In this document: piece after piece, positions 31,912 to 46,826 of the stretch
Layout of the letters: every line of letters starts with the position of its first letter
How positions within the stretch are numbered: the first letter of the stretch is position 1
DNA from: a virus
Lineage: Duplodnaviria > Caudoviricetes
Length of the DNA: 58,067 nt
IMG/VR virus record: IMGVR_UViG_3300031452_000007
Coordinates: 1 to 58,067 of that record
Direction: 5' to 3' (one strand)
Program-made: the position numbers and the translations under genes
The notes under the pieces: model-generated
What the model was told of the DNA's origin: nothing
Databases searched by the model: none
Seen by the model: the letters and a program-made list of their open reading frames with translations, nothing else

Positions 31912-31922
31912 CACACGACACG

Positions 31923-32816: not shown

Positions 32817-32969
32817 GGGGTCTCCATCTCTGCCATCTGTCGCGCCAATGCGCGTACAGAACGGCCACACAGGCGGCGCGGCGACGGGCTGGGTCCGCCG
32901 CGCCATCAGGAGCGTGTGGCTGTTCACACGGCCCCTTGTTAGCACATCTGTACGTGCTAAGGTGAACAT

Positions 32970-33647
32970 ATGATGCGTGATACGCCCCATCGCCCCTATA
33001 GCGTTTTTGTCTCAGGACCAGCGGCGCCAGGGCTCACCGTTCCCGCTCCTCGGCCGCCATCGGCCTCCGTGGCCGCCACCTCTCTCGGCGTGGCCTCACT
33101 GCTGATGGAACAACTGCTCGACCACTCTCCCGCCGTCGTCACGCACAGCTTGCGCGTGGCGCGACACGCCGCCCGCGTGGCGTCGCGGTTGCCGGGCGAT
33201 CCCTGGCGCGGCCGGGAGAGCGAGGTGTACGCGGCGGCGCTCGTGCACGACGTCGGCAAGATCAACGAGCCGCTGGATATCCTGCTGGCCGCGCGGCCGC
33301 TCACGGCCATCGAGTACGCCTGCATCAAGGATCACCCGTTCCACGGCGTCGCGCTGGTGCGCCGCTACGCGGCCGTGTCGCCCTTGCTGGAGGACGCGGC
33401 GTGGGGGCATCACGAGTGGTGGGATGGCTCGGGCTACCCGCGCCGCCTGGCGGGCGCGGAGATCCCGGCGATCGCGCGCCTGGTCAGCCTGGTCGATGCG
33501 TTCGACGCCATGTGTGAGAATAGGCCCTACCGCGCGGGGATGACGCCGGCGGTGGCGCTCCTTGAGATCGAGCGGGGGGCGGGCACCCAGTTCGACCCAT
33601 CTTTAGTCGATATCGTGTTGCGGCACAATCTACTCAGGGACGGCTAA
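32970..33647 (+). CDS. stand-alone HD-GYP cyclic-dinucleotide phosphodiesterase
   Basis: HSLRVA, HDVGK, HHEWWDGSGYP, FDAM, RPYR and GTQFDP motifs all intact. Confidence 0.9.
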   Translation: MMRDTPHRPYSVFVSGPAAPGLTVPAPRPPSASVAATSLGVASLLMEQLLDHSPAVVTHSLRVARHAARVASRLPGDPWRGRESEVYAAALVHDVGKINEPLDILLAARPLTAIEYACIKDHPFHGVALVRRYAAVSPLLEDAAWGHHEWWDGSGYPRRLAGAEIPAIARLVSLVDAFDAMCENRPYRAGMTPAVALLEIERGAGTQFDPSLVDIVLRHNLLRDG

Positions 33648-33742
33648 TGGCGGCAATGGGTTGAGGCGCGGATAGCGCGCCAAAATACGCGCGCGCGGCG
33701 CATTGTAGCGTCTGATAGACACAGTCTCCTCCCCTACATCTC

Positions 33743-33985
33743 TCACCAGCGCACCGGTCCAACGCCCGTGTATTCTCCGTGTTCCCGTTCCCACGCGGCA
33801 AACGCTGCTTCCCCGAGCAGCGCATCGGACATATCGCCTCCCGGTAACGGAGGCGGCGTCTGCGCGATAGCCAGATCGTAGCGCCGCCGGAAGGCGCGGT
33901 CGGCCCGTTCGCAGCGGTACGCAGACGCCACGACGTAGAGCGCCACGGCCACACTCGCACCGACGGCGATGATAGCTCCAATCAC
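33743..33985 (-). CDS. small membrane protein
   Basis: GTG start overlapping the upstream stop; N-terminal TM helix. Confidence 0.45.
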   Translation of the reverse strand: MIGAIIAVGASVAVALYVVASAYRCERADRAFRRRYDLAIAQTPPPLPGGDMSDALLGEAAFAAWEREHGEYTGVGPVRW

Positions 33986-34134
33986 CGTCGCAGGATCAGG
34001 ACGGCCAGGGCCGCGGCCGCTAAGGGGATAGCGTACGCGGGTGCTCCCGTCAGTGTCAGCAGAGTAACGGCAACCGCGCCCGCCGCCCAAAAGGCGAGGA
34101 TGCGCGGCAAGACCCGTCGTATGTTCTTATCCAT
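33982..34134 (-). CDS. 50 aa two-TM peptide (not in ORF track)
   Basis: MDKNIRRVLPRILAFWAAGAVAVTLLTLTGAPAYAIPLAAAALAVLILRR; AAGGA RBS. Confidence 0.45.
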   Translation of the reverse strand: MDKNIRRVLPRILAFWAAGAVAVTLLTLTGAPAYAIPLAAAALAVLILRR

Positions 34135-34372
34135 GATTGTTTTCCTTGACTATCCCCGCCGTCGACGTCGCCGACGGGGGGTAGCTATAGACCGGGATCG
34201 CGCTCAACTCCCGCCCTCTGACGGCCGCGCAATGCGTGCACACGACGAGCAGGACATCATAGCGTTGCTCCAGCCGCATCACGCGGCCAAAGCCGTTGCG
34301 TTGTTCCTCGACCGTGCGCACGATGACCGGTCCCGGTCGCCACTCGTGCGCACAATATTTTTCCTCATCCAT
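34127..34372 (-). CDS. small zinc-ribbon protein
   Basis: CAHEW...CTHC; GAGGAG RBS. Confidence 0.55.
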   Translation of the reverse strand: MDEEKYCAHEWRPGPVIVRTVEEQRNGFGRVMRLEQRYDVLLVVCTHCAAVRGRELSAIPVYSYPPSATSTAGIVKENNHG

Positions 34373-34408
34373 CCCACACTCCTCGTTGCTCTATAGCTCT
34401 ATAGCTAT

Positions 34409-35605
34409 TCACCGCAACCCTCCCATCTCCTCACCACCTCTCCCCACGCCCGCCATCTCCAACGCCTCAGCGGAGGCTGGCGCGATCTCACCCCGGCCAC
34501 GCAGATAAGCCACCGCCTCACGCGCCGACGACAACCCCTCAGCCACCATCACGAAATCCAAAGACGAGCCACCCTGGCCGATGGTGTGACAGTGCCACAA
34601 GCCACGCTCCACGTCCACGGATAGCGAGGGCGTCTGATCGCCGTCGCCATGATGCGGGAGCGGACAATGGTAGACGCCGCTCCGGCTGACCTCCACGCCG
34701 TACCCGGCCAGCACCTCCTCTAACGGATGCGCAGCCTTCCAGCGCTCGATGGGCGACTGACCCAACGGCTCGAACGGACGCCACCGCTCCTGCGTCCTCT
34801 CCCTAACGGGCTCTGGCTCCCGGTCCAGCGTCCCGATACGCTCCTCTTCCAGCCAGGACCGCCGCTCGACCTCCCTCATGACGTCTATAGGTGGCACGGA
34901 GAGGATATAGGCGAGCTGCCCGCCTAACGTCGTCGCCGAGGGCTGACCATCGGGCCGGATGAACGGGTAGCGCTCCCCGCTCTTCTGATGCAGCCCGAAC
35001 GGTCCCCGCACGCTGTTGCCCACCTTGCCCTCTGGCAGGACCTCCTGCTTGGGGTTGATCTCGACCGCGCCGCGCCCCTCGGCCATCCTAGCCCGCTCCT
35101 CCGCGCCGACAGCGTACAGCAGCAGGTTCTGCATCGACCGCGCCGGCACAGGTTCGGCGGCGAAGATCCGGACACGCGCGCCACGTCGCGACAACTCCAA
35201 CGCGCTGCTGATGCCCGCCCTATCGAGCCGCAGGTGCGCGTCGCGCATCAGCTCACGCCCGTTGACCGGCTCATACCGGGTGACCTTGCCCGGCTGATGG
35301 GGGTCCGGCACCGGGCGCTTGTCGTCGCACTCCATGACGCCTTCGCGGCACAATGTCTGCTGCCCGACCCGTTTGGCGCTGTAGAACGCCAGCGTGGTCT
35401 GGCCGCGCAAGTGGCGCTCGATCAGCTCGTCGGTGAGCGCTAGTGGCTTCTCCTTGCCGAACCGTTGGTCATAGGCGCGCAGGTAGTGCCCGCCGCGCTC
35501 CTGGCCCTCCTGGTCGCGCCACAATGGCTGCTGGACACAGTAGGTCTCATCGACGTAGGCGAAACGTTCGCGGTACAGGTGGATGCGCGCGTCATGGCTA
35601 GCCAT
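34409..35605 (-). CDS. AEP/TOTE-like primase domain + CHC2 zinc finger
   Basis: IERHLRG, ECDD, ELSRRG and PKQ...GN.V..P motifs; C-terminal CPLPHH...TPSLSV...WHC. Confidence 0.7.
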   Translation of the reverse strand: MASHDARIHLYRERFAYVDETYCVQQPLWRDQEGQERGGHYLRAYDQRFGKEKPLALTDELIERHLRGQTTLAFYSAKRVGQQTLCREGVMECDDKRPVPDPHQPGKVTRYEPVNGRELMRDAHLRLDRAGISSALELSRRGARVRIFAAEPVPARSMQNLLLYAVGAEERARMAEGRGAVEINPKQEVLPEGKVGNSVRGPFGLHQKSGERYPFIRPDGQPSATTLGGQLAYILSVPPIDVMREVERRSWLEEERIGTLDREPEPVRERTQERWRPFEPLGQSPIERWKAAHPLEEVLAGYGVEVSRSGVYHCPLPHHGDGDQTPSLSVDVERGLWHCHTIGQGGSSLDFVMVAEGLSSAREAVAYLRGRGEIAPASAEALEMAGVGRGGEEMGGLR

Positions 35606-35683
35606 CACGCCACCTCTTCGCTGCAATAAATCCAGCGTAGAGAGGCGATAAATGGTAAAATGAGGGTAGTTCTACACAGAGCA

Positions 35684-35716
35684 CGGCGTGTTGATGCGAC
35701 TAACATCAACACGCCG
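35684..35716. promoter_or_regulatory. 13 bp inverted repeat upstream of the HNH gene
   Basis: CGGCGTGTTGATG / CATCAACACGCCG; extended -10-like TGGTAAAAT at about 35653. Confidence 0.5.
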
Positions 35717-35751
35717 CTAGACGACTGACACTGATAAGGAGTGCCGCCGCC

Positions 35752-36243
35752 ATGTCTGATAGTGTACCCCAACCCTCTCTTTTCTACGCCGAGATCCCGC
35801 TGACGAAAGGTCTCGTTGCCCTCGTTGACCGCGACCTCTACCCCATTCTCTCTCAGGGCCACTGGTGTACCAGTGGCGGCTATGCCGTCCGTGACATCTA
35901 CCCGAACGGACAGCGCCACCATATCGCGATGAGTCATGCCGTCCTCGACCTGCGAGGTATTGCTATCCCGACCGGCTATGAGGTCGATCATTGGAACCGG
36001 AATAGAACTGACAACAGGACGGAGAATCTGCGCGCCGTGCCCCCACGCATCAACAAGCTCAACGTGGGGCTGAATTACCGGAACACGTCTGGCTATCCTG
36101 GTGTGCAGTGGGATAAAACGCGCGGTAAGTGGTTCGCGCAAATAGGTGTGCGAGGACGTTCCATTTTCCTCGGTCGGTACACTGACGTAGAAGAGGCAGC
36201 CGCCGCCTACAAGGCCGCTCTCGCCAAAAGCGCTCTTGAGTAG
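35752..36243 (+). CDS. HNH-AP2 homing endonuclease
   Basis: VDHWNRNRTDNRTENLR (HNH) and NTSGYPGV.W....KW.A.I...LG.Y...EEAA.AY (AP2). Confidence 0.9.
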   Translation: MSDSVPQPSLFYAEIPLTKGLVALVDRDLYPILSQGHWCTSGGYAVRDIYPNGQRHHIAMSHAVLDLRGIAIPTGYEVDHWNRNRTDNRTENLRAVPPRINKLNVGLNYRNTSGYPGVQWDKTRGKWFAQIGVRGRSIFLGRYTDVEEAAAAYKAALAKSALE

Positions 36244-36257
36244 CGCACAGGGTACCA

Positions 36258-38171
36258 TCACAACACCTGCCAATCGATCAAGAGATCCGCTGTTGGTCCG
36301 TTCGCGGGTAAGGACGGTCTGGCGTCGGTTATGGACTGTGCCGGTGGCAAGGGAAGCCCCGCCCGCCGGCGCAACAGGGGGTGGTAGTAGTAGCGCCCCG
36401 CCCACCACAGTTTGACCGGCCGCAGGTTGCCGACGATCGCCAGCAACTGCGGAGCCCACAGCCGCCTCACCTCGTCGGCGGTCAGGAGCGGTCGTCCCTT
36501 CTCCGAGAGGCCCATGTTGCCCTGCTTCATGAGGATCTCGCTGCCGTCCCTGGTCGCCCCGCCCTGGCGCTGGGCCACGGTGCCCTCTCCAAGCTCCTGG
36601 GCCACGGCCTCGGCCTGCTCGGCGCGCAAGCCCGGCAGCACGAGATGCGCGTAGCAGCCCTGCAAGATGATCTTGCGGCCAGCCTCGGTGTAGATCTCGT
36701 CAAGCTGCGTCGTCGATTGCGCCCCGATGACAGTCCCGATGCCGGCCTCGCGCGTCGTATTCATGCGCGCCGGCAAGTCGGCGAGCTTGCCGATGGTCCC
36801 AATCTCATCCCACCAGTTTTGAACGCGGCGCTTCAACACCTTCCTGGCCCCGCCGGCGCTGTTGGCCTCCCTGAGTAGCTCGATGTTCATCTGGTCAAAC
36901 AATGCGCCCACGAACGGGCGCAGCATGCGCTCGTAGCCGGGCGTCAGCGTCACGAAGACCGCGACCGGCGGCTTCGATGGATCGGCCAGGTCGCGCCAGA
37001 CGACGCTGTTCCGGCGCGTCGTCTCGACGATCCTGCTATCCCAAAGCGCCATGAACTTCAGCGGCGGGCCACTAAAGACGCTGCCTTCGAGCCGTTCGTT
37101 GCCCTCCATGAACGACAACATGCCTCTGGCGGCCTCGCGCGCCGGCTCACTGTTGGACCGCTTGAGCGTCGCCTTCACCGTGGCGGCGGGCTGGGCCAGG
37201 AACTGCTGCACCGCACGTAGGGTAGCCGTGCCGTGCTCTTCCATGAGATGAAACAGCGTGGCCACCAAGAGGAGCGTCGTCGTGTCATCCCAAAAGGGCG
37301 TATCGCTGTTGCGGCCGGTATTCTCGATGAGCGAGGCGGCCCAGGCGAACGCGTCGGCGGGTTCCTGGATGTGCGCGGGGTCCAGCGGGTTGTAGCCGTC
37401 GCTGGTCAGATCCAGCCAGTCAATCCTGACGACGCGGTAGCCGAGCGTGGCGAGCCAGCCGGCCGTTTGCGCGTAGATGCTCCCCTTCGAGTCGGTGAAC
37501 GTGAGCGATGGCAGCCGGCCAGAGCGCCCGTGCCGCGGCGAGAGGCGCAGGATGTTCTCGACGATCAACCTGGTCTTGCCGTAGCCCGGTGGCCCCCACA
37601 AGATGGCGTTCCGGGCCTGGTCTTTCTCGCGGATCGAGAGGCGCGGACCAATCCCGAACGGGCCGATACGTCCAATGCTAAAGGGGACTTCGCGGCGGCG
37701 GGCGTAGAGCCGCCACCACACGTACCAGCCCGCCCAGCCAGCCGAGCCCGATGAGCGCGAGAGGCGCAAGCCGCCGGCGACGTGGCGCGAGAGGCGCAGC
37801 AGGGGCCGCCACAGCCGCCACAGCACCAGGGCAGCGACGATGAGCAGCAGGTAGACCGTCCATTGCCGGACGCGCGCCATGTGACCTGTACGGGCCTGCA
37901 AGCGGCTATAGCGGGTGCCGATGGTGGGGCCAGTCCAGTCGTGCCAGCTCACGATATGCAGTTTACCCGTGGCCAGGGCCGTCAATTTCAGTCTGTGACG
38001 TTGGGCGGCGTCGGAGAGGTCGGCGGCGACGGCGGCGGGGTAGGACACGGCGACGACGGCGGTCTGATAGACGCGCTGGGCTTGTAGGCGCGTGGTGTGG
38101 TTTGATAGAGCGGCGCGGTAGCCGGCGACAAGGGCGGCGGCGATGAGCAGGGTGAGCAGGATGCGGCGCAT
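36258..38171 (-). CDS. virD4: VirD4/TraG-like type IV coupling protein
   Basis: Two N-terminal TM helices, GPPGYGKT, TDSKG, YNPL, PFW, WDEIG, QSTTQL..IY and RPLLTADEV. Confidence 0.9.
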   Translation of the reverse strand: MRRILLTLLIAAALVAGYRAALSNHTTRLQAQRVYQTAVVAVSYPAAVAADLSDAAQRHRLKLTALATGKLHIVSWHDWTGPTIGTRYSRLQARTGHMARVRQWTVYLLLIVAALVLWRLWRPLLRLSRHVAGGLRLSRSSGSAGWAGWYVWWRLYARRREVPFSIGRIGPFGIGPRLSIREKDQARNAILWGPPGYGKTRLIVENILRLSPRHGRSGRLPSLTFTDSKGSIYAQTAGWLATLGYRVVRIDWLDLTSDGYNPLDPAHIQEPADAFAWAASLIENTGRNSDTPFWDDTTTLLLVATLFHLMEEHGTATLRAVQQFLAQPAATVKATLKRSNSEPAREAARGMLSFMEGNERLEGSVFSGPPLKFMALWDSRIVETTRRNSVVWRDLADPSKPPVAVFVTLTPGYERMLRPFVGALFDQMNIELLREANSAGGARKVLKRRVQNWWDEIGTIGKLADLPARMNTTREAGIGTVIGAQSTTQLDEIYTEAGRKIILQGCYAHLVLPGLRAEQAEAVAQELGEGTVAQRQGGATRDGSEILMKQGNMGLSEKGRPLLTADEVRRLWAPQLLAIVGNLRPVKLWWAGRYYYHPLLRRRAGLPLPPAQSITDARPSLPANGPTADLLIDWQVL

Positions 38172-38181
38172 GGGAACCTCC

Positions 38182-38397
38182 TTACGACCCATGGCGAGGC
38201 AGGGCGTGCTCGCGGATCGCGGCCATAATCGCGTTGAAGGCGCGCTCTTCGTTGCCCGCCGTGTCTATCTGGTAGGGCATTATCTCTTTGACCCCAAGCT
38301 GCTTTGTCGCCTCCAGGTAGCTATCCAGCGCCAGTATCTGCACGGCATCGACCACTTTCTTGGCGAGCTTCTCCTCATGTGTCGTCGCTTTCGGCAT
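38182..38397 (-). CDS. hypothetical protein
   Basis: AGGAGGAG RBS; between relaxase and coupling protein genes. Confidence 0.6.
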   Translation of the reverse strand: MPKATTHEEKLAKKVVDAVQILALDSYLEATKQLGVKEIMPYQIDTAGNEERAFNAIMAAIREHALPRHGS

Positions 38398-38414
38398 GCT
38401 CTCCTCCTATCCTT

Positions 38415-38918
38415 CTATCCCATTACTCGGCGCGCCCGCTCCTCGACACGCGCCTTCCATCGCGCCAATGTCCGCCCTCGAATCTCCACCGAACGTCCCC
38501 CGCTGTCCCCATAACCGGAGGTATCCCCGCCCGCGAGCAGCACATGCGCATGCACGTTGTCGGTGTCCCGATGCACCCCCGCCACCCACACCGGCCGGCG
38601 GTCCAACAGCAGGCCCAGCTCGTCGAGCGCCCCGCACACCAGCGCCCGCGCCGTCGCTGTGTCGTCGAGTCCCTGCTCGGTGCGCAGTGAGAGGATCACG
38701 CGGTGATAGGCCACCGGCCCCGTCCAGTGCGGCGCCAGGCCATGGGATGCGATAAGGGAGCGCGCCTCTTGTGGAGACACCGGCGCCAGCATCCGGCCAA
38801 ACAAGGGGACGTCGCCGGCGCGGCTGATGTAGCGGCACTGCTGCGTCAGGCGAGAAGGCGCGCGGATGTTGTTCTGCTGATACCGGGTGTCGATCACGGT
38901 GAGAGCCTTGTCGCTCAT
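38415..38918 (-). CDS. minimal HUH relaxase (MOBP-like)
   Basis: Motif I YISR, motif II YHRVILS, motif III HRDTDNVHAHV. Confidence 0.75.
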   Translation of the reverse strand: MSDKALTVIDTRYQQNNIRAPSRLTQQCRYISRAGDVPLFGRMLAPVSPQEARSLIASHGLAPHWTGPVAYHRVILSLRTEQGLDDTATARALVCGALDELGLLLDRRPVWVAGVHRDTDNVHAHVLLAGGDTSGYGDSGGRSVEIRGRTLARWKARVEERARRVMG

Positions 38919-38931
38919 GTATGGCCTACCC

Positions 38932-39495
38932 TCAACTCTTGCCCGCTAACAAGCGCAGCCAGCCCCGCCGTGGCATGGGTGGCGCGGGTGTTACGTCAGG
39001 CACAACGGTTGGTCGCACCGGCCACCGCTGGGGCCGCTGCTCCGCCTCCTCATCGCCACTGCCCTCGTCAGCAGAGCTGACGCGCCCGCGCATCAGCCGC
39101 GCCATCACGCCGTCGGCGCGCGCCTGGCGGGCCACACGCAGGGCCTCCTCTTCGTTGCGTACCGCCGCCGCCGGATCGGTCAGGTGGCACAGCAGCGCGA
39201 AGAGCAGCAGCCGGGCCGTCGCCGCTTCCAGGTGCGGACCTTCCAGGATCTCCTTGAGCTGGCGCGTCATCTGGTCAGTGTAGTCACCCAGCACGCGCCG
39301 GGTCATCTCTTCGAGCGCGCCCAGCCCCGCTTCGGCCTGGCGCTCGGCCGCTTCCGTGCCGACGGCCATCTTGACGAGCCGATCCAGCGTACGGCCGTTA
39401 TCGAGCCCCCACTCTTCGGTGTAGTCCTCGACGAGCTGGCGCGTTGCCGGGTCGACCGTGAGGTTGAAGCGCACCCGCTTGGTGTCGTCGCTCAT
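38932..39495 (-). CDS. MobC-like relaxosome accessory protein (RHH)
   Basis: RVRFNLTV strand plus helices; directly upstream of the relaxase. Confidence 0.55.
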   Translation of the reverse strand: MSDDTKRVRFNLTVDPATRQLVEDYTEEWGLDNGRTLDRLVKMAVGTEAAERQAEAGLGALEEMTRRVLGDYTDQMTRQLKEILEGPHLEAATARLLLFALLCHLTDPAAAVRNEEEALRVARQARADGVMARLMRGRVSSADEGSGDEEAEQRPQRWPVRPTVVPDVTPAPPMPRRGWLRLLAGKS

Positions 39496-39590
39496 CGCCC
39501 ACCGCCGATCGAGGCCGGCCAGCACGCGGAGAGTGGCAGGGTAAAGGCGTGCGCATGAGGGCGTGCACAGCGGCCGTCTACGCCTGAAAA

Positions 39591-39657
39591 GCCGCGTGCA
39601 TGGTTTGCACGCGGCCCCTGGCCCATGCACGTCCCGCGTGCATGGCTTATCCCTGGG
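39591..39657. other. candidate origin of transfer (oriT)
   Basis: Two inverted repeats (39591-39615, 39623-39645) followed by TTATCCCTG, upstream of mobC-relaxase. Confidence 0.5.
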
Positions 39658-39692
39658 ACACGCAACGTATGCACGCGCATCAACATCCCCCT

Positions 39693-39935
39693 TTAGCCTG
39701 CCATGTAGATCAAATGATGCTGCACGCCATAGACGACGGCGAAGACCAGGAAGAGCAACACCAGCACGACGATGAGGACAAGCAATGCCAGCGCCAGTCG
39801 TCGTAGGCCGCGCCCCGTGATCGTGACCCATGGCCGGCTGATCGGAATCGGCACTCCCTGCCCCGCGAGCAGCCGGGCGATGCGCCGTCGCTCTTTCCGT
39901 CGGCCCGCGAAATACCCCGCTCCAAAGTTATCCAT
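39693..39935 (-). CDS. small membrane protein
   Basis: One long TM helix; AAGGAG RBS. Confidence 0.55.
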   Translation of the reverse strand: MDNFGAGYFAGRRKERRRIARLLAGQGVPIPISRPWVTITGRGLRRLALALLVLIVVLVLLFLVFAVVYGVQHHLIYMAG

Positions 39936-39952
39936 GGCTTGCTCCTTCCTGC

Positions 39953-41080
39953 CTACATAAACCCAGCGAACGTTGCCGCTTTCGACGCCAGACCGGATAG
40001 ACTACCCGCCCCGGCGTGCGCCGCCGCCGACACCAGCCCCGCCAGGATAAACGGGACGAGCGCCAGCACAAGCAGCCCCCCCAGTAGCATGATGTCATTC
40101 CAGACGATACCGCCAATCACCCCGCCCACGCGCCCGTTGCCTTGCCCTTCCAGAGACACGATCACCGAGAGCATGAGCGCGTAGGCCGGCCCCAGCAGCG
40201 ACAAGTAAGCGAACGTGCGCAGCCAGGCCCGCGCTATGTCGGCCACCGGCGGCCACGCGAACAGGATAATCGCCAACGGGCCGATCTCGTAGACAAAGGC
40301 GAAGACGTGCAGGCTCACGGCACGCTCGATGCCCACGACAATGAGGAGCACCGGGGCCAGCACCAGCGCCAGGCCGCTATGTCCGAGGTCGTGCATGGTG
40401 GACGCTCCGATGTCACCGGCCAGGCCATTGACGCCGCCCATCCACATGTTCACGAGCGTATCATACGCCGCGAGCGCGGCCAGCACGAGGCCAGACCGCC
40501 ACAACAACGCCACGCCCTGGGCCACATTGCCAAACCAGGCGGGTTTCATGGTCCAGAGTACGGCGATCCCAAAGACGACGGCGAAAGCATCGCCCGCGTC
40601 GGTCGCCAGCGTGTCCTTGACCCTGACCAGGCCCGCGTTGCCGGTCGGGTTGTCCGTGCGTGTGAGCGGCCCGATGATAGCATCCGTGACGTCCTTGATC
40701 TGTGTCTCCAGTATCGTCGTCAGGCCGCCCCACAGCGCCGCCCAGCCCTGCTGAATAACACCCCAGATGTCGATGCAGAGGCCGTTACCCAGCGGTAAAG
40801 GAATGGCGAGCCCGCTCGCGCCGCACGTCGAAGACGACGACACCGCCCCGCCGATCGTCGCCGCCGGCGTTGGTGAGGGGCTCGGTGTGGGGCTCGGGCT
40901 TGGAGCCGCCGTGGCGATCACGACCACGACGCGCGCTGTTTGCGTCGGCGCGGGCAACGTCGTGACCACTGCGGGGGGGAACGTGGGAAATGGTCCCGCC
41001 GCGCCGGCCGCCGTGGGCAGGGCCACCGCGATGAGCAGTGCTACCGCCAGGAAGATCACGGAGCGTGTGCGTGTCGTCAT
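39953..41080 (-). CDS. VirB6/TrbL-like polytopic membrane protein
   Basis: Signal peptide, Pro/Thr linker, multiple TM helices, GPLAI.L..WP....ARAW motif; follows VirB4. Confidence 0.65.
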   Translation of the reverse strand: MTTRTRSVIFLAVALLIAVALPTAAGAAGPFPTFPPAVVTTLPAPTQTARVVVVIATAAPSPSPTPSPSPTPAATIGGAVSSSSTCGASGLAIPLPLGNGLCIDIWGVIQQGWAALWGGLTTILETQIKDVTDAIIGPLTRTDNPTGNAGLVRVKDTLATDAGDAFAVVFGIAVLWTMKPAWFGNVAQGVALLWRSGLVLAALAAYDTLVNMWMGGVNGLAGDIGASTMHDLGHSGLALVLAPVLLIVVGIERAVSLHVFAFVYEIGPLAIILFAWPPVADIARAWLRTFAYLSLLGPAYALMLSVIVSLEGQGNGRVGGVIGGIVWNDIMLLGGLLVLALVPFILAGLVSAAAHAGAGSLSGLASKAATFAGFM

Positions 41081-43524
41081 GCCATCCTCCTTTGCGGCGT
41101 GACGCCATCCGTGTCTAGCGCCATCTTTATCCCAGCCCACACGTCACCGCCGGCGCGCGCAGTCCACCACTGGCGCGCGGCCAAGTCGTCTACATCGCTG
41201 GCGTACAGCTTCGCCTCTTCGGGCGTCAGTTCCACGCGCACGATCCCGTGTAGGTCGCGCGGGATCGTGCGGTCGCGCCGGCTCATGAACATGGGCATGT
41301 AGACGCCCTTCTCTCCGCTCATACGCTGGGCCTGATCGACCTCGGCCGGCGTCAGGTTCAGCATCCGTTCAAGCCACAGGCGCGGGTTGCCCTCGGTCTG
41401 CTGGCCGTTGTCCTCAACCGAAAAGAGCGCCTTCCACGAGCTTTGCGTGAAGAACGTTTCGGCGTCGGTGTCCCCGACCAGGTCCTTGATCTGCTGCGAG
41501 GCGAACACCACGCAGTTGCCGCCGTGGCGGGCCTTGCGGGCGTCACGGTTGATGTGCTCACGCGCCAGCGGGCTTTTCAACAGGCCCCACGCCTCATCGA
41601 GCCCCGTCAAGTGGTCGGCGCTCGGGCGCCCCGCCGCCGCGCTCCGCGCGCGGGCCAGCACGCGGCGTTGGTCAACGATCGCGAACACGGAGAAGTAGGC
41701 GTAGTTGCGCAGGGCCATGTCTTGCTCCAGCGGTCCGGTGTCGAAGGCGAGCAGCGGCGCGTCCAGGCGCACGCTGGTCTGCCCATCGACCAGGCGCGCG
41801 TGCTGGCCGTCGCCCACGTAGGGCCGCAGCCGCCAGCCCAGCGCCCGCCACACCTTCTTGTCGTCGCGGTCGCCCTTCGTGGCCGTCCATTGCCTCTCCA
41901 TGTAGGCGTAGAGGTCGGCCATGACCGGCGTGTGGTCGGGCGCGGCCGCGTAGACGGCGCGGACTGCCTCGTCCACGAAGGCAGGCTCCAGGTCGGCCAG
42001 ACCGCCCAGCAGCAGATCAACGGCCGCGCACACGAAGCGCACGCGCTCGCGGCGGTCCTCGTCCGTGGCGCGTGGGCCGTCCCACACATTGATGCACGCG
42101 GACTGCGCCCCGCCCAACGTCGCCTCGACGCCGCCAGAGATGGCGCACAGCGCCCCGAAGCTGGCGACCGAGGAGACGACTGTCGCCATGTCCCCGCGTA
42201 GCATGAACCACAGCGCCAGCTTCTGCAGCAGGCTCGTCTTGCCCGTGCCGACGCGCCCCAGCACCACGCCGATACGGTTGTAGAGGTTCGGGTCGTCCAG
42301 CGCCAGGCTCACCACGTCGCCGGCCGCGTCCGTCACGCCCAACGGGACACCCGGCGTGCGTGTGCCCGGATTGAACGCCAGGAACGGCCAGGCGTTGCCG
42401 AGCGTGGGCGAGTCCCAGCGATACGTCGAACGCGCCCGGTCGGGATAGCCCGGCAAGGTCGCGCGGTAGAGCGGCTCCTGGTGCGCGTGTCCATAGCCCG
42501 GCTCCGCGATCATCGTGTCGCGCATCGCCTGCAAGATCCGTGTCACGCGGGCGTCAAGCTGGGCCTGCGTGTCGCCCTCTAGCCGCACGTAGCAGCCCAC
42601 ACGGACGATGCTGTAGCCTTGCGTGTGCAGCGCCACCGCCTGCGCGTGCGCGTCCTGTGCGGCCAGGTCGGTGGTAATGTCGCTGTGGCCCGTCGTGGTG
42701 GCGCTCATGACGCGGAGGCGCGCGCCTTGGCGCTTACGCTCCCACCACCGGCTCAGGCCGGTCATATGTAGCACGATAGTGACGGGGCAGTCCGCCGCCA
42801 CCAGTGGCCGTAGCCACCCAGGGTCAGTCTCGACCGGCGGTTGTACCAGGAAGAGCGTGCGCACCCACCGCGCGACCTTCGCTGAGGCGCTCCCTGTGCC
42901 TAGGCGGTAGCGGAGGTTGCCCTCCGTGCCGTGTGGCGCCGTGTACCCCGCGTCGTCGTCCACGTCCGTGCCTGCGGCGTCGTCGGTCTGGTCCAGGTGC
43001 CGCGCGAGGAAGGCGTGGGCGTCGGCCGTCGTGACGAGCAGCGGGGCCAGGCCCATGCTCACCAGTTGCCGTGTGATCGCGGCCGTGGCCTGCGCGCGCC
43101 GGGCCGGCTCCGTCTGGTCGGGGTAGCCGTCCTGGATAGGGTACGGCTGGAGCAGCAGCCAGTAGTCGAGCGTGGCCGCATGGCGCGCCGTCGCGGCCGT
43201 CAGCCGGTCGGCCCAACGCGCCACCAAGCGCTCGCCCACCTCACCTAGCGCGGGCGTGTAGGGCGTGGGCGCGAGCTGGGCGCGTAGGGTCTGTGTCATC
43301 GTCGCGGCGTCCGCCGGGCGGTTCTCGATATAGACGGCCAGCCGCGCCTTGTAGGGCAAGCTGGCCGCGAGCAGGGCGAGCAGGCCCGCGTGGCGGTCCT
43401 GGTCGGGCGTGGAGAGCGACGCGAGCGCCACTCCAGGGAGATGGAGCAGCGCCCGCGTGATGCCGTCCGCGCCGGTGATCGTCGCGTCGTCATTCACTAT
43501 GACGGGCGTCAGTCTGCGGCGCAT
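41077..43524 (-). CDS. virB4: VirB4-like conjugative ATPase
   Basis: Walker A GRVGTGKT, INVWD, DEAW, ARKARH and ASQ motifs. Confidence 0.9.
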   Translation of the reverse strand: MRRRLTPVIVNDDATITGADGITRALLHLPGVALASLSTPDQDRHAGLLALLAASLPYKARLAVYIENRPADAATMTQTLRAQLAPTPYTPALGEVGERLVARWADRLTAATARHAATLDYWLLLQPYPIQDGYPDQTEPARRAQATAAITRQLVSMGLAPLLVTTADAHAFLARHLDQTDDAAGTDVDDDAGYTAPHGTEGNLRYRLGTGSASAKVARWVRTLFLVQPPVETDPGWLRPLVAADCPVTIVLHMTGLSRWWERKRQGARLRVMSATTTGHSDITTDLAAQDAHAQAVALHTQGYSIVRVGCYVRLEGDTQAQLDARVTRILQAMRDTMIAEPGYGHAHQEPLYRATLPGYPDRARSTYRWDSPTLGNAWPFLAFNPGTRTPGVPLGVTDAAGDVVSLALDDPNLYNRIGVVLGRVGTGKTSLLQKLALWFMLRGDMATVVSSVASFGALCAISGGVEATLGGAQSACINVWDGPRATDEDRRERVRFVCAAVDLLLGGLADLEPAFVDEAVRAVYAAAPDHTPVMADLYAYMERQWTATKGDRDDKKVWRALGWRLRPYVGDGQHARLVDGQTSVRLDAPLLAFDTGPLEQDMALRNYAYFSVFAIVDQRRVLARARSAAAGRPSADHLTGLDEAWGLLKSPLAREHINRDARKARHGGNCVVFASQQIKDLVGDTDAETFFTQSSWKALFSVEDNGQQTEGNPRLWLERMLNLTPAEVDQAQRMSGEKGVYMPMFMSRRDRTIPRDLHGIVRVELTPEEAKLYASDVDDLAARQWWTARAGGDVWAGIKMALDTDGVTPQRRMA

Positions 43525-43882
43525 GAGTCCTCCTTTGGGCCTGTACGGCCGTCCGTGCCTGGGCGGTCCTGGTGGTGAGTTGTGTCCGGGCCACCGCGAT
43601 CCCGCGCGCCATGGTCCGGCCCATGACGCGCACGGCGTAGCGGCTCATTTGCGCGGGGTATCTTTCGATGCCGCCGCGCCCGAAGGCCAGGATCGGCGCG
43701 ACCAGCAGCACGGTTGGCGCGGCGACGGCCAGGATGTGCATGTTCGGGTTGTGAATCCCGCTCGCCAGGATGGCGCACACCCAGAGCGATACCGCCCCGA
43801 CCCCCATAGCGATCCACTGAGGGACCGTCAGCCGCGCCAGGCGTAGATTATCGTTCAAGCTGCGTGGCGTCCGGTGAGCCAC
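43490..43882 (-). CDS. PrgI/VirB3-like membrane protein
   Basis: LTVPQW plus two TM helices, immediately before VirB4. Confidence 0.6.
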   Translation of the reverse strand: MAHRTPRSLNDNLRLARLTVPQWIAMGVGAVSLWVCAILASGIHNPNMHILAVAAPTVLLVAPILAFGRGGIERYPAQMSRYAVRVMGRTMARGIAVARTQLTTRTAQARTAVQAQRRTHAPQTDARHSE

Positions 43883-43884
43883 GC

Positions 43885-44100
43885 TTATATCCCTGCCCCA
43901 ATGGCCACGAAGCTGGCGATCAGGACAATGGCCAGGAACGCCGATCCCAGGATCTCCGCTTTATGGCCTCGGCTAAACACCAGTCCACACGCCGCGCTAA
44001 TGATGATAATGGCGATCAGGGCCGGCGAGATTTCCTTGATGTAGCCGATAGCCTTGGCGGCGGCGTCCCCGAAGGCCGAGGCGATAACGACATTGTTCAT
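43885..44100 (-). CDS. VirB2/pilin-like protein
   Basis: 71 aa, two TM helices with a short basic loop; first full gene of the tra operon; AAGGAG RBS. Confidence 0.55.
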   Translation of the reverse strand: MNNVVIASAFGDAAAKAIGYIKEISPALIAIIIISAACGLVFSRGHKAEILGSAFLAIVLIASFVAIGAGI

Positions 44101-44128
44101 GGTGTACTCCTTGTTTTTTAAACGGTGC

Positions 44129-44287
44129 CTACAGGGTGTCGGCTTTGTGCTCACGGTTGAACGCCAGGGCGCAGGTGGAGCTCACGATGATGAACGCGAT
44201 GAGCGCCGGGCTCATGGCGTGAACGTACCCCAGCGCTTTAGACGCAGCGTCCCCGAGGGTGCTGGCGATAACGAGAGATTCCATCAT
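44129..44287 (-). CDS. truncated paralog of the pilin-like protein
   Basis: VIAS..GDAA.KA.GY....SPALIA shared with 43885..44100; lacks the second TM. Confidence 0.55.
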   Translation of the reverse strand: MMESLVIASTLGDAASKALGYVHAMSPALIAFIIVSSTCALAFNREHKADTL

Positions 44288-44428
44288 GACGTGCCTTCCT
44301 TCGTTATTCGGTGGTGGGCTGTTATGGTTATAATAGCAGTCAAGAGCAACTCCAAGCAACCACGAACTACACAAGCGCCGCTTATAGTAACGGGGAGATG
44401 CTCAACTAAAGGGAGGTGGCGGCGCGTT

Positions 44429-44629
44429 ATGGACAGGAGGCGACGCGAGGTGATCTACACCGAACGCATGATGCTGCGTTTAACGCCGGAGGAAAAGGCT
44501 GCTCTACAACAAGCGGCCGACGCCGAACACATCCCCTCACTAGCGGTTGTCGCCCGTAAGGCGATTATCGAATGGCTAGAGCAACGTGGACTCAAAACAG
44601 GCCCGCGTGACGACGACACCCCCGCCTAA
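44429..44629 (+). CDS. RHH regulator divergent from the tra operon
   Basis: MMLRLTPEEKAALQQAA; GGAGG RBS. Confidence 0.7.
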   Translation: MDRRRREVIYTERMMLRLTPEEKAALQQAADAEHIPSLAVVARKAIIEWLEQRGLKTGPRDDDTPA

Positions 44630-44630
44630 A

Positions 44631-44672
44631 GCACGCGGCGCCGGTGATAGCAGCATCACCGGCGCCGCGTGC
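44631..44672 (+). terminator. hairpin terminator
   Basis: Perfect 18 bp stem right after the stop codon. Confidence 0.65.
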
Positions 44673-44766
44673 GGCATTGATGTGCCGGACGGTCAGGATA
44701 AGCCGGAGAGCGGCCCCGATAAGGAGGACGAGGCGTAAATGACGACGCGGGGAACGGCAGCGACTC

Positions 44767-45015
44767 ATGCCTGATGACGAGGAATACTTCACCCTGACCG
44801 AAGCCATGAGGCGCGCGGGCTTGAAGGACAACAAGTCCATCTATCGGGCGATGCGATCCGGCCGCCTCAAGACGGTGACCAAAATGTCAGGACCGCGCAT
44901 CGTACACCTGACGACCCAGGCGTGGCTCGACGCGTTCCTGGCTAGCCGAGCCAACGGACAGCGCCCCGGCCCCATGCACGAACCCGAGCCCGCCGACAAC
45001 GACACGCACGCCTAA
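44767..45015 (+). CDS. excisionase-like HTH protein
   Basis: YFTLTEA...SIYRAMRSGRLK, a MerR/Xis-type winged helix pattern. Confidence 0.65.
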   Translation: MPDDEEYFTLTEAMRRAGLKDNKSIYRAMRSGRLKTVTKMSGPRIVHLTTQAWLDAFLASRANGQRPGPMHEPEPADNDTHA

Positions 45016-45050
45016 CCCGCATGAGGGCCAACACAAGGAGAACGTACGCT

Positions 45051-45263
45051 ATGGCTGACGCACGACCAACATGCCCCGATTGCGACATCAAGGGCATAGA
45101 GTACATCGTATCCACGCCAAGTACCGAAACGTCTGAGGGCGGCGACCCCTGGTTTAATGTCGCGCATTGCAATCAGTGCGGGCATGTCTACGGCGTCTTC
45201 GCCAAAACTGTTAACCGTCCCGCGCCCGTGCTGCCCGTTACAACTATTCCGTACCAACCGTAG
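45051..45263 (+). CDS. zinc-ribbon protein
   Basis: CPDC...CNQCGHVYGVF; AAGGAG RBS. Confidence 0.7.
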   Translation: MADARPTCPDCDIKGIEYIVSTPSTETSEGGDPWFNVAHCNQCGHVYGVFAKTVNRPAPVLPVTTIPYQP

Positions 45264-45276
45264 AGCGAACGTCATA

Positions 45277-45316
45277 AGAGAGGGCCTGGCGTCACTATTG
45301 GCGCCAGGCCCTCTCT
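45277..45316. terminator. terminator hairpin between convergent units
   Basis: AGAGAGGGCCTGGCG / CGCCAGGCCCTCTCT 15 bp stem. Confidence 0.7.
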
Positions 45317-45430
45317 CTGTCCTGGTGTATGCTAGACGTGAGCCGGGCGGCGCCTCAGCGGAGGCAGGCCGGCCTGTCTGGCGGGCTACCAGACAGGCTG
45401 TGCGCTTCTCGCCGCCCGCGCCCGTACCGG

Positions 45431-45667
45431 TTAGTCTTCCTCTCGCTCCTTCATCCGAATCCAATACCTGTGATACAAATACCGCACCCGCTGCGGTGAC
45501 ACGCCCACCGTCGGCGCGATGGCCGCGAACGTCTGTCCCTCCTCGTCATGCCGCCGCACGATCTCCCGGTCGCGTGCGTCCGGCTGCCACGCCTGCCGGA
45601 TGGCGAGCGCGCGCGACAAGCGATCGGGCCGGGTGGTCATGCGCTCCAGGATCTCCGGCCGGCTCAT
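45431..45667 (-). CDS. small HTH protein (sigma70 region 4-like)
   Basis: RDREIV...GQTFAAIA...GVSPQRVR. Confidence 0.65.
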   Translation of the reverse strand: MSRPEILERMTTRPDRLSRALAIRQAWQPDARDREIVRRHDEEGQTFAAIAPTVGVSPQRVRYLYHRYWIRMKEREED

Positions 45668-45830
45668 GGCCCCCACTCCTCACACTCCGGCGTCCCCAGA
45701 CAGTCAAGGCCCGGCCGTTGGCCGCTCACACGCGTACACACAGCAACCTGGAGCCACACGCGGTTACGACCATCATTGACGTACCAGCGTTCCCAGTGGC
45801 CGCCCTGGCGTCGTCGCCACCATCGTCCGA

Positions 45831-46070
45831 TCACTGGCCATGTCTCGCGATCGCGGCGTTTGCCCAAAAGACGGCTGTCTCTAACTCCGTCAGCGCCACG
45901 CTCTGCTCACGGCTGGCCGGCGTTAGCGCGGCGATCAGCAGCGCCAACTCTTTGGCCTTCTCGCGGAGCTGCGTGTACTTTTCCGGTTGTCCGGGCTTGG
46001 GCGCGTGGTACTGAAAGTTGTGGGCGATCTGTGCCGTCTTGTCCATCGCCACCGTTGTGTCTTTGCTCAT
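45831..46070 (-). CDS. Acb2/Tad1-like hairpin protein, putative immune-signal sponge
   Basis: NFQYHAP...SREQSVALTELETAVFWANAAIAR helical hairpin signature. Confidence 0.7.
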   Translation of the reverse strand: MSKDTTVAMDKTAQIAHNFQYHAPKPGQPEKYTQLREKAKELALLIAALTPASREQSVALTELETAVFWANAAIARHGQ

Positions 46071-46378
46071 CAAAACACCCCCTCCTCATCACTCTCATCA
46101 TCCACATCCACAATACCGCTAACCTCGGTATGCCGCCGCGCCAGACGCTGCGCCCGCTCCGCGTCATAGAGCGCCAGTCTCTCGGCGTCGCGCCTTGCCG
46201 CCTCGACCCGTTCCCGCTCCTCATCCTCCGTCAGGCGCGCCACCACGACATCGCGCAGCAGCATCAGCACATCGCTCGGTGAGTCGCCCTCGTCGATACG
46301 GGCGCTCGCGGCCATGGCACGATTCCCATAACTCCCATCGGACATTTTGCGTTCGTAATGCACCTGTTCGATCTGCAC
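46070..46378 (-). CDS. hypothetical protein
   Basis: Coupled ORF in the early operon. Confidence 0.55.
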   Translation of the reverse strand: MQIEQVHYERKMSDGSYGNRAMAASARIDEGDSPSDVLMLLRDVVVARLTEDEERERVEAARRDAERLALYDAERAQRLARRHTEVSGIVDVDDESDEEGVF

Positions 46379-46382
46379 TGCT

Positions 46383-46826
46383 CTATTCTCCTATCGTGAT
46401 AATCGCGGGGTTCGGGACCTCAGGCAGGTCCAACACATAGCGCGCGGCATTACACGCCCAGCCCCACATGAAGCCGGTGATACCCTCCACGGCGGCGTTG
46501 TAGCCCGCAGGGTCCATCTCCTCAAACAACTCAACCCACCCCTTTCGCGCGATCGTGGGATGCCCCTCGACGACGTGATCCCAATCGTACACTGTGTCCA
46601 CAGGCGCCCTGGCTATCTCGGGATGGGCGCGCAGCGTCGTCAGGATGAACTTGGCGGTAAAGAGCGCCATGTCGTTGTAGTCCGCCGGCGGCGTCGAGAC
46701 CGCCATAATCGCGCGCTCCATCTCCTCCCGGCTCATGCCCTCCTCTTTGGTCGGCGCGGGTTCGCCACCTAGGATCGTGTCTAGCGCCCGTTTCGCCCCA
46801 ATGCCCTGCTGTGCTCCATCGCTCAT
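46383..46826 (-). CDS. conserved phage hypothetical protein
   Basis: GITGFMWGWACNAARY...NPAI segment; GGAG RBS. Confidence 0.6.
   Translation of the reverse strand: MSDGAQQGIGAKRALDTILGGEPAPTKEEGMSREEMERAIMAVSTPPADYNDMALFTAKFILTTLRAHPEIARAPVDTVYDWDHVVEGHPTIARKGWVELFEEMDPAGYNAAVEGITGFMWGWACNAARYVLDLPEVPNPAIITIGE

Follow-up and report, generated by a model that had tools for sequence, protein, structure and literature searches.

A tailed temperate phage genome, recovered from rock metagenomes, carries a conserved set of plasmid-type DNA-transfer genes between its replication and packaging genes, so it may be able to spread by cell contact as well as in virus particles. The window (the whole stretch of DNA that was analysed, 58,067 nt, IMG/VR record IMGVR_UViG_3300031452_000007) encodes these genes at 34409-45263: a primase, a VirD4 coupling protein, a small relaxase, an accessory protein, a candidate oriT, a protein in the VirB6 position, a VirB4 ATPase, a VirB3-like protein, and two small pilin-like proteins. 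The first-pass annotation had listed these genes and described them as lying within an intact-looking prophage, and its observation held: every listed gene is present where it was placed and on the minus strand. Its interpretation, that the excised circle could spread either in virions or by conjugation, is only partly supported, because the structural claim was strengthened but transfer by conjugation is pure inference.

A transfer module within a tailed phage genome

The coupling protein VirD4 (36258-38192, minus strand) matches PF02534 at 103 bits against a cut-off of 20.1 (E = 1.8e-29), PF10412, PF12696, and NF045973 (5.4e-49), and TrwB is its only sequence match in the PDB, in two entry sets. 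It has two N-terminal membrane segments, and Walker A and B are conserved in 9 of 9 aligned sequences. The VirB4-type ATPase (41077-43524, minus strand) matches TIGR02746 at 3.4e-22 and NF045971 at 2.4e-12. Although these scores are far below the curated NCBIfam cut-offs (78 against 567 bits), a profile of 20 homologues hits only VirB4 4ag5 in the PDB (5.5e-7), and both the Walker A motif (GxxGxGK) and the Walker B motif ((D/E)E) are intact in 20 of 20 sequences. We found 72 clusters of VirB4 homologues.

The relaxase (38415-38918, minus strand) has only 167 amino acids, and its family hits are weak (1e-4 to 2.4e-3) and below the Pfam cut-off (18.6 against 24.6). It was confirmed by its predicted fold. 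The AF2 model has a pLDDT of 93.7 and a pTM of 0.90, and the top Foldseek hit is the minimal MobA relaxase of plasmid R1162 (PDB 2ns6, E = 2.5e-5, TM 0.60), followed by TrwC and MobM. Y30, H72, and H116-x-D-T-x-x-x-H123-A-H125 are invariant in the alignment of 7 close relatives. The histidine triad and Y30 are conserved in at least 90% of 42 family members, of which 29 hit PF03432. The protein is similar in size to minimal MobA and shares the histidine triad and the N-terminal tyrosine, but the sequence identity is 15% and here the relaxase is free-standing rather than the head of a larger protein. Only 55 representative clusters among 1.84 billion match its profile at E of 0.001 or better.

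The gene in the MobC position (38932-39495, minus strand) probably starts at the ATG at 39495, not at 39831. It is conserved at 46-62% in 4 relatives. A ribbon-helix-helix is suspected from the sequence only, and as there was no Pfam or PDB match, the name MobC is not confirmed. The primase (34409-35626, minus strand), which is the last gene of the DNA-processing block, combines an AEP primase-polymerase domain (PF22548, 2.5e-11) with a CHC2 zinc finger (PF01807, 3e-8) and matches the PHROG DNA primase families. Between the primase and VirD4 lies a 0.63-kb insertion (35627-36257, minus strand) that is specific to the window and holds an orphan 216-aa frame. It is absent from the relative G001 (see below), in which the VirD4 and primase matches abut, and the frame had no Pfam hit and gave no lead in an atlas search (best score 0.78). 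A 71-aa ORF (38182-38397, minus strand) between the relaxase and VirD4 has no known role and was not examined beyond the ORF list.

Upstream of the accessory and relaxase genes is a candidate oriT or operator (39535-39702), a 168-bp element with a 13-bp outer inverted repeat that encloses 5-8 short iterons. The arms were found in 6 of 6 relatives, with starts 154-155 bp apart, while the iteron sequence differs between relatives. In the alignment, 93.6% of cells are paired, 4 pairs have changes on both sides, and 1 of 500 shuffles scored as high. Of the window's 21 GCGTGCA sites, 5 lie here. The element is real and conserved, but whether it is an origin of transfer is left undecided by these data: no nick site was identified, cleavage was not assayed, and paired iterons that change together fit one binding protein as well as a folded DNA structure.

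The remaining channel genes, all on the minus strand, are labelled from position, size, and predicted membrane segments only. The protein in the VirB6 position (39953-41140) has 395 amino acids and 6 predicted segments; its AF2 model was unusable (pLDDT 45.8) and it had no PDB match. Next to it is a small protein with two predicted membrane segments (39693-39935, hydropathy scan), and the relatives G001 and G002 have membrane proteins of 176-184 amino acids at this position. The VirB3-like protein (43490-43882), directly upstream of VirB4, has two membrane segments. In G001 and in the related loci L015 and L019, a similar two-segment region is the N-terminus of VirB4 itself, whereas in G002 only one segment is predicted. 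The pilin-like protein (43885-44154) has two hydrophobic segments, and its homologues stand at the head of the operon in G001, G002, G003 (a small element described below), and L019. The second pilin-like gene (44129-44374) is a truncated paralogue that is 50% identical to the first and ends after the first segment. Finally, a divergent pair on the plus strand (44767-45263) encodes an 82-aa helix-turn-helix protein and an 80-aa zinc-ribbon-like protein, which are possible local regulators (weak PF13338 and PF09723 hits); the helix-turn-helix gene also occurs in G001, G002, G003, and L019.

Among the 12 module ORFs scanned, no integrase or transposase family was hit. Of the module ORFs scanned for them, none matched a peptidoglycan hydrolase or a VirB8/TcpC-like family. 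Such proteins are needed in known Gram-positive systems. With VirB6- and VirB3-position proteins present by topology only, the channel accessory genes do not settle whether this is a recognised MPF type, and the CONJScan/MacSyFinder and MOBscan models were not run on it. The only strong direct repeat that flanks the module is one copy of a motif that is dispersed through the phage.

The surrounding genes are those of a tailed phage. On the minus strand, these include the large terminase subunit TerL (28944-30440; phrog_38, 2.2e-94), the portal (27247-28944; phrog_12, 9e-44; PF04860, 1.1e-47), the HK97-type major capsid protein (22781-24433; phrog_10, 3.6e-41; PF05065, 9.1e-42), the tape measure protein (14260-17700; 13 PHROG families, 12 of them tape measure, plus the endolysin family phrog_971 at residues 520-702), and an endolysin (3813-5105; Amidase_2, PF01510, 1.1e-27, with weak C39-like and SH3 hits). 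A protease is also part of this backbone. A tyrosine integrase (56620-57852, plus strand; PF00589, 9e-22, plus arm-binding and SAM-like domains) ends 17 bp from a tRNA-Thr(CGT) gene (57869-57943, minus strand; ARAGORN), which is the probable integration site. The left end of the prophage is missing, so that its intactness is not shown: the record is linear, CheckV rates it 67% complete, and instead of a second att site the window has only a 12-bp match inside an ORF, which leaves the completeness of the integration module undecided. TerL, portal, capsid, tape measure, and lysin each align nearly full length to G001 as one alignment.

Conservation and exchange of the module

Two other viral contigs of 63 kb, G001 and G002, are collinear with the window over about 54 kb. 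That close relatives might lack the module had been named as grounds for rejecting the hybrid, but both of these full-length relatives carry it at the same place. They hold primase (85-92%), VirD4, relaxase, and accessory protein at 52-92% amino acid identity, with a VirB4 at the same position. G002 has a different capsid, portal, and TerL, and both have serine recombinases where the window has a tyrosine integrase. Of 11 metagenome loci fetched, 2 repeat G001 and G002; of the other 9, 6 were compared, and all 6 show the same gene order as far as they reach, including a clade with only 57% VirD4 identity. In contrast, among the loci of TerL relatives with at least 8 kb upstream, 1 of 22 has the module, and that one is G001.

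The DNA-processing genes evolve under purifying selection, with dN/dS of 0.11-0.18 for VirD4, 0.10-0.13 for the primase, and 0.09-0.28 for the relaxase at dS of 0.56-0.94. This makes it unlikely that the module is inert cargo on its way to decay. The truncated pilin-like copy and the 0.63-kb insertion would fit decay, as might the inteins in VirB4 of G002 and (inferred) of L015 and the intein domains recorded in two VirD4 homologues. However, inteins splice out and do not imply decay, the catalytic motifs are intact, and all main frames are open in the window, G001, G002, L015, and L019.

A recent passive insertion from a plasmid or ICE, which the first-pass annotation had also offered as a way to be proven wrong, is not indicated either. 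The best plasmid matches are 26-28% identical for VirD4 and 21-26% for VirB4, no phage record has a good VirB4 match, and no similar module was found in plasmid or phage databases. Another such condition, a chimeric assembly near 34.4 or 45.3 kb, is very unlikely. Independent contigs bridge both joins: a 27.1-kb contig from another run covers 31000-40321 with no differences, and exact pieces cover 44227-47229. Three separate viral records and further metagenome contigs show the same joins. Short contigs do break inside 40.3-44.2 kb, where several variants share words, but pieces at the depth of the flanks carry the window-type VirB6 gene (40292-41224) and the pilin end (44227-44885). The module is therefore lineage-stable rather than a chimera or a recent passive insertion.

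The suggested comparison of VirB4 and TerL histories, on the other hand, showed that they are not congruent. The genome is mosaic: TerL (99% identical in G001) has a dS of 0.07 against 0.76 for VirD4 of the same pair. Also, the window's VirB4/VirB6 block is a different allele, only about 31% identical to that of G001 and G002. Its nearest relative among the sequences fetched lies in G003, a 36-kb integrative element that does not look like a phage, with 73-85% identity (73% for the VirB3-like protein and 85% for the VirB6-position protein). The block is covered 3-10 times deeper than its flanks in four runs and is shared at 90% likeness or more with other, more abundant elements in the same runs. 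This block therefore moves between elements and may be recent in this phage.

G003 is one of four viral records of 31-38 kb (G003-G006) with the same order of pilin-like, VirB3, VirB4, VirB6-position, relaxase, and VirD4 genes. They carry a tyrosine integrase (shown for G003 and G005) and a TerL-like gene, and G005 also has a primase-polymerase, a helicase, and an 809-aa protein with a lytic domain that the window's module lacks. None of the 4 matched the HK97 capsid or Phage_portal families, and their VirD4 and relaxase are only 31-37% identical to the window's.

Possible roles of the module

We propose that the window is most of a temperate siphovirus-type prophage of an uncultured high-G+C bacterium (the host is unknown) and that it carries a compact conjugation-type transfer module as a standing part of its lineage's genome. 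The analysis itself demonstrates a DNA-processing block and a minimal channel block that lie between early and packaging genes without a recombinase of their own, the persistence of the module in collinear relatives through swaps of the head module, the integrase type, and even the channel block, and purifying selection on the DNA-processing genes. How it would work is our inference. The integrase would excise the prophage as a circle; the accessory protein would bind the iterons; and the relaxase would nick within or beside the 168-bp element and stay attached to the 5' end. VirD4 would hand the relaxase-DNA complex to the VirB4-powered channel, and a single strand of the whole phage genome would enter a touching cell, where the co-encoded primase would prime the complementary strand and the integrase would insert the circle. 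The same genome could still leave in virions. We consider this explanation about as likely as not. There are no data on transfer, expression, or nicking, and no listed run that holds the stretch is on record as RNA. It is speculation that contact-dependent spread could pay where free water, and hence virion diffusion, is scarce.

A second possibility, which seems less likely, is that the phage is mobilizable but not self-transmissible. The conserved relaxase, coupling protein, primase, and cis element would be functional, but the small channel block would not be enough on its own, and the circle would ride the mating channel of a resident conjugative element or borrow missing parts from one. 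The DNA-processing block is conserved at 78-92% identity between the window, G001, and G002 while the channel block is swapped, the module lacks a hydrolase or VirB8-like gene, and the same runs hold more abundant elements with near-identical channel genes, a relative of which (G005) has the lytic-domain protein. However, every full-length relative keeps a VirB4, a polytopic partner, and a pilin-like gene in the same order, the block in the window was replaced rather than lost, the Walker motifs are intact, and dN/dS for VirB6 between G002 and L015 is 0.19.

Third, the machinery could be repurposed for another phage-specific task, such as moving replicating phage DNA between connected cells of a filamentous host, exporting a protein, or excluding rival elements. 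The module is co-oriented with the early and late phage genes around it, so it may be expressed in the lytic programme. This seems unlikely because the full set of relaxase, iteron element, coupling protein, and primase is what DNA transfer needs, and no effector-like cargo was seen among the module ORFs.

Finally, the carrier might not be a working phage but a conjugative element that absorbed a prophage, or a defective prophage, in which case only the conjugative route, or neither route, is live. CheckV completeness is 65-68% for all three long records, the left end and second att site are missing, no repressor was identified, and all records come from bulk metagenomes. We also consider this unlikely: TerL, portal, capsid, tape measure, and lysin are open and align nearly full length with those of G001, dN/dS is 0.04 for TerL and 0.18 for the portal, and the complete alternative head set of G002 argues for selection on virion production.

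The phage-ICE tandems of Streptococcus and others (Sci Adv 2026, PMC13651849) also link a prophage physically to conjugation machinery, and there too the idea is that a phage integrase excises a unit which conjugation then moves. But tandems are two whole elements joined side by side by site-specific accretion, and their authors state that they are not a hybrid element. The window does not fit this description, as its transfer genes lie inside the phage genome without their own recombinase and are inherited with the phage lineage. The conjugative prophage Phi1207.3 of Streptococcus pyogenes is another comparison (PMC4260502), but the words relaxase, VirB4, coupling, and type IV do not occur in that paper and its authors call the mechanism unknown, whereas here the genes are explicit and transfer is untested. 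Phage-plasmids such as P1, N15, and SSU5 combine phage functions with functions typical of plasmids, but they borrow replication and partition functions and transfer as virions (NAR 2021, PMC7969092; NAR 2022, PMC10123127). This element has an integrase next to a tRNA gene and borrows the transfer apparatus instead; no partition or plasmid replication family appeared in the scans made, although extrachromosomal maintenance was not examined. The module also resembles integrative and conjugative elements of Firmicutes and related phyla, from which the CD1110 and CD1115 families of NCBIfam were drawn, in its NF045973 and NF045971 matches and in the order of small membrane proteins, VirB4, and a polytopic protein. 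However, all scores are below the curated cut-offs, VirB4 scores better against F-type TraC, no hydrolase or TcpC/VirB8-like gene was found, and the carrier is a tailed phage. Our full-text literature searches found no interleaved phage-conjugation hybrid in print.

A tentative further reading is that this lineage of tailed temperate phages is truly bimodal: the same genome of more than 60 kb would leave a cell either packaged in virions or, after excision, as relaxase-led single-stranded DNA through its own minimal type IV channel, which would be exchangeable with that of small integrative elements in the same rock communities. This would be the first hybrid in which conjugation is a heritable part of a phage genome rather than a neighbour of it. 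The module also supplies a very small free-standing relaxase with a well-defined candidate target site that is open to direct test. Virion transfer and conjugation are treated as the two alternative ways in which mobile elements move between cells (PMC10123127, PMC7969092). A phage lineage that keeps a relaxase, a coupling protein, and VirB4 under selection, through swaps of its head genes and integrase, would blur that division. It would also bear on software that sorts contigs into "virus" or "conjugative element", on spread where virions diffuse poorly, and on host range, as conjugation needs no receptor.

Phage backbone and lysogeny genes

The window is a whole IMG/VR virus record of 58,067 bp, which is linear and is rated 67% complete by CheckV. 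Its G+C content is about 60-71% throughout, with no sharp break at the module, and nearly all of the long reading frames are on the minus strand. From left to right, these frames include an Amidase_2 lysin (3813-5105), a 1146-aa protein with Ig-like domains (8862-12302), a tape measure protein (14260-17700), a capsid protein (22781-24433), a protease (24499-25644), a portal protein (27247-28944), and TerL (28944-30440). The capsid also matches PF05065 (E = 9.1e-42) and the portal also matches PF04860 (E = 1.1e-47). Beyond the lysis genes is a YspA/SLOG-family protein (1419-1943; PF10686, E = 4.4e-13) that is shared with G001, the 63.8-kb viral relative described below. The left edge (3-857) encodes the C-terminal part of a DNA methylase fused to an Mrr-type restriction endonuclease domain, and positions 700-868 are 86% identical to the left end of G002, the other long viral relative. 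An early protein of 796 aa (49972-52362) has a DUF3854 domain; with the AEP primase of the module, the phage may have two priming systems.

At the right end are a tyrosine integrase (56620-57852, plus strand) and, 17 bp further on, tRNA-Thr. We found no terminal repeat, and the only match in the window to the end of the tRNA is 12 bp long and lies inside an ORF, which we attribute to chance. As there is no second att copy, the left end of the prophage is not in the record. No repressor was recognized. A 19-nt direct repeat brackets the module (34463 and 45351) and at first resembled an insertion scar. However, it is one instance of a 14-nt palindromic motif (5-bp stem, 4-nt loop) that is scattered through the phage, with 9 matches at up to 1 mismatch against 0.1 expected (window 13613, 31578, 31859, 32776, 34464, 45352, 47331, 50336), so we rejected it as an att site. 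None of the copies lies inside the module but one sits at each edge, and the left copy is exactly where the similarity of the primase to G001 and G002 ends. The motif may be a boundary or regulatory motif of the phage backbone, and similar copies occur in G001 and G002.

The conjugation-type module and its cis element

The first-pass annotation had listed two pilin-like genes, PrgI/VirB3, VirB4, a VirB6-like gene, a small membrane protein, a candidate oriT, MobC, a relaxase, VirD4, and a primase, and this list is correct in content and order. VirD4 is unambiguous: it matches PF02534 at 103 bits and NF045973 at 5.4e-49, it has two N-terminal membrane segments, Walker A and B are kept in 9 of 9 aligned sequences, and TrwB is its only match in the PDB. 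VirB4 is more divergent. Its best score is to TIGR02746 (E = 3.4e-22), which is far below the cut-off, but a profile of 20 homologs hits only the VirB4 structure 4ag5, and the Walker motifs are intact. The primase joins an AEP domain and a CHC2 zinc finger. Between VirD4 and the primase is a 0.63-kb insertion (35627-36257) that is absent from G001 and holds an orphan 216-aa frame, for which neither family searches nor a search of the protein atlas gave a lead.

On sequence alone, the relaxase was the weakest link, as it has only 167 aa and E values of 1e-4 to 2.4e-3. A profile of 7 orthologs found only 55 representative clusters among 1.84 billion proteins (E of 0.001 or better), and most of these are 140-300 aa long. 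We aligned 36 of the 55 with 6 orthologs, and of these 42 members, 29 hit PF03432 Relaxase and 26 hit MobL. The AlphaFold model is confident (pLDDT 93.7, pTM 0.90), and its best neighbors in the PDB are the minimal MobA relaxase of R1162 (E = 2.5e-5, TM 0.60), followed by TrwC, a viral Rep domain, and MobM. Y30 and the motif H116-x-D-T-x-x-x-H123-A-H125 are invariant among the 7 orthologs.

The other components are less certain. The accessory protein probably starts at the ATG at 39495, and it matched no family and no solved structure, so "MobC" is a positional name. The VirB6, VirB3, small-TM, and pilin-like names rest on order, size, and hydropathy, and three of the channel components are named by topology only (the predicted structure of the VirB6-position protein was too poor to search with, and sequence searches of the PDB gave nothing for it). 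The module has no recognized cell-wall hydrolase or VirB8/TcpC-like protein. The pilin-like proteins of both module types share a weak common pattern, and the second copy in the window stops after the first hydrophobic segment. In G001 and in the metagenome locus L019, the VirB3-like two-segment region is the N-terminus of VirB4, with a similar sequence pattern.

Upstream of the accessory gene is an element (39535-39702) that is found in all 6 relatives examined. Its two arms of 10-13 nt are mutually complementary and start 154-155 bp apart in every case, and they enclose 5-8 short repeats in both orientations. The sequence of the repeats differs between relatives while the arms stay. (A scan of viral contigs for the exact outer arms found nothing; the three viral records each carry a mismatch in an arm.) On the 13-pair outer stem, 93.6% of cells pair and 4 pairs changed on both sides; one of 500 shuffles reached the observed covariation, and slid controls pair at 28-57%. 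With only 6 sequences, two of them close kin, this is suggestive rather than strong, and repeats that change together fit one binding protein as well as a folded strand. No nick site was identified, but this element is the best candidate for the origin of transfer or its operator. A promoter and terminator scan gave 1 promoter-like site (2.2 expected) and 14 terminator-like sites (7.4 expected), none of which we use as evidence, and no RNA data set was listed among the 24 sequencing runs that hold the sequence.

Relatives of the phage and origin of the channel block

Searches with VirD4 found 2 viral records, G001 (63.8 kb) and G002 (62.8 kb), and 11 metagenome loci, of which two are the same sequences as G001 and G002. 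In contrast, two scans of genome contigs, with VirD4 alone and with a VirD4 alignment, found no relative, so no named host and no isolate prophage were found. Scans with single VirB4 proteins, from the window or from G001, added no new viral records. The absence of the module from close relatives, together with near-identical modules in plasmids or ICEs, had been named in advance as an outcome that would contradict the hybrid, but G001 and G002 are collinear with the window from about 1 kb to 55 kb and carry the module at the same position. The primase (92 and 88% amino acid identity), VirD4 (88 and 87%), relaxase (79 and 85%), and accessory protein (52 and 54%) are followed there by a VirB4 that is only about 31-32% identical. 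The gene order in both is pilin-like, VirB3/VirB4, polytopic protein, small membrane protein, cis element, accessory protein, relaxase, VirD4, primase. Of the 9 other metagenome loci, we compared 6 (L021-L023 were not examined), and all 6 show this order as far as they extend, including L017-L019, whose VirD4 is 57-58% identical. (Translated comparison of L019 and L015 was too noisy at this G+C content to annotate the region beyond the primase.) G002 shows no similarity to the TerL, portal, or capsid of the window and has another capsid (phrog_3922), portal (phrog_3753), and TerL (phrog_2). Also, G001 and G002 end in large serine recombinases rather than a tyrosine integrase. Thus, the module has stayed with this phage backbone through exchange of the head module and of the integration module.

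An intein with a LAGLIDADG domain interrupts VirB4 of G002 (L011:2715-6251). The metagenome locus L015 (2628-6368) has an insertion of similar size at the same site, and its VirB4 is 86% identical to that of G002 over the whole length. Two VirD4 homologs of 1047 aa (P0002 and P0007) carry intein domains.

Among the window, G001, G002, and L015, dN/dS is 0.11-0.18 for VirD4, 0.10-0.13 for the primase (no L015 pair), and 0.09-0.28 for the relaxase, at dS of 0.56-0.94. TerL (28944-30440) differs between the window and G001 by dS of only 0.07, against 0.76 for VirD4 (36258-38192) of the same pair, which points to a recent exchange of the head module between the two phages. The histories are not congruent, as expected of mosaic temperate phages. 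The congruence of VirB4 and TerL trees that the first-pass annotation had proposed as a check would thus fail, without harming the main claim.

The VirB4 of the window has at least 72 homolog clusters at 44-95% identity, against 11 for its VirD4 (E of 1e-10 or better). Four viral records, G003-G006 (loci L024-L027 and L034-L037), carry this type of VirB4. G003 shares 73% (VirB4), 85% (VirB6-position protein), 73% (VirB3-like), and 76% (pilin-like) identity with the window, but its VirD4 and relaxase are only 35% and 31% identical. The window therefore combines the DNA-processing block of its lineage with a channel block of the G003 type, which may be a recent replacement in this phage, and the join lies between the cis element and the VirB6-position gene. 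G003-G006 are integrative elements of 31-38 kb that CheckV rates as 83-100% complete, and they have a type IV module, a relaxase, and VirD4 plus a TerL-like gene. G003 and G005 carry a tyrosine integrase; G005 also has a primase-polymerase, a helicase, a lytic-domain protein, and a 547-aa TerL, while G003 has only a TerL ATPase half. They share nothing but the module with the window, and 0 of 4 matched PF05065, PF04860, or phrog_12 (other capsid and portal families were not tested). They could be conjugative elements with a terminase, or satellites.

Assembly, database comparisons, and interpretation

The first-pass annotation had also named a chimeric assembly, with breaks at about 34.4 or 45.3 kb, as a result that would count against it. 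Five runs labeled rock metagenome hold at least 55% of the sampled words of 36000-45900, and we placed the contigs of four of them on 31000-49000. In one run, a 27.1-kb contig covers 31000-40321 without a difference, and exact pieces at the depth of the flanks cover 40292-41224 and 44227-47229. Both joins of the module to the phage are therefore bridged. Joints with a short side, such as 44629 to 36, were not interpreted. In all four runs, the summed depth over 40015-44221 is 3-10 times that of the flanks, so other, more abundant elements with channel genes at least 90% alike must be present in the same communities.

Near-identical modules in plasmids or ICEs were the other half of the outcome that would have pointed to a recent passive insertion, but the best plasmid matches are only 26-28% identical for VirD4 (816 records matched, none covering 80% of the query) and 21-26% for VirB4 (30 records). 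Among 50,697 phage records, VirB4 found two unannotated fecal contigs at 22-24% identity, while TerL found 2,344 records, the best at 44% identity. Of 80 viral loci kept from 124 TerL relatives, 22 have at least 8 kb upstream of TerL, and only 1 of these, G001, has any module gene (E of 1e-5 or better). The other 21 share at most 47% TerL identity.

In the literature, phage-ICE tandems are described as accretions "rather than a hybrid element" (PMC13651849), and the text of PMC4260502 never mentions relaxase, VirB4, coupling, or type IV. We found no description of an interleaved hybrid, that is, of a tailed phage with an internal set of relaxase, coupling protein, and VirB4, although our full-text searches did not extend to most subscription journals or to supplements, and Supplementary Table S4 of PMC7969092, which lists phages with plasmid or conjugation features, could hold a precedent. 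We also consulted PMC12424338, PMC5154133, PMC12282955, and PMC10123127.

The observation in the first-pass annotation, of a compact conjugation system inside a prophage, is confirmed. Its interpretation, that the excised circle could spread either in virions or by conjugation, is supported in part: the structural claim is supported, but function is wholly inferred. A life cycle with both routes is plausible but untested, and we consider it about as likely as not. The main alternative is that the phage is mobilized by a helper. The structural reading, that a conjugation-type module is a heritable part of a tailed temperate phage lineage, is well supported.
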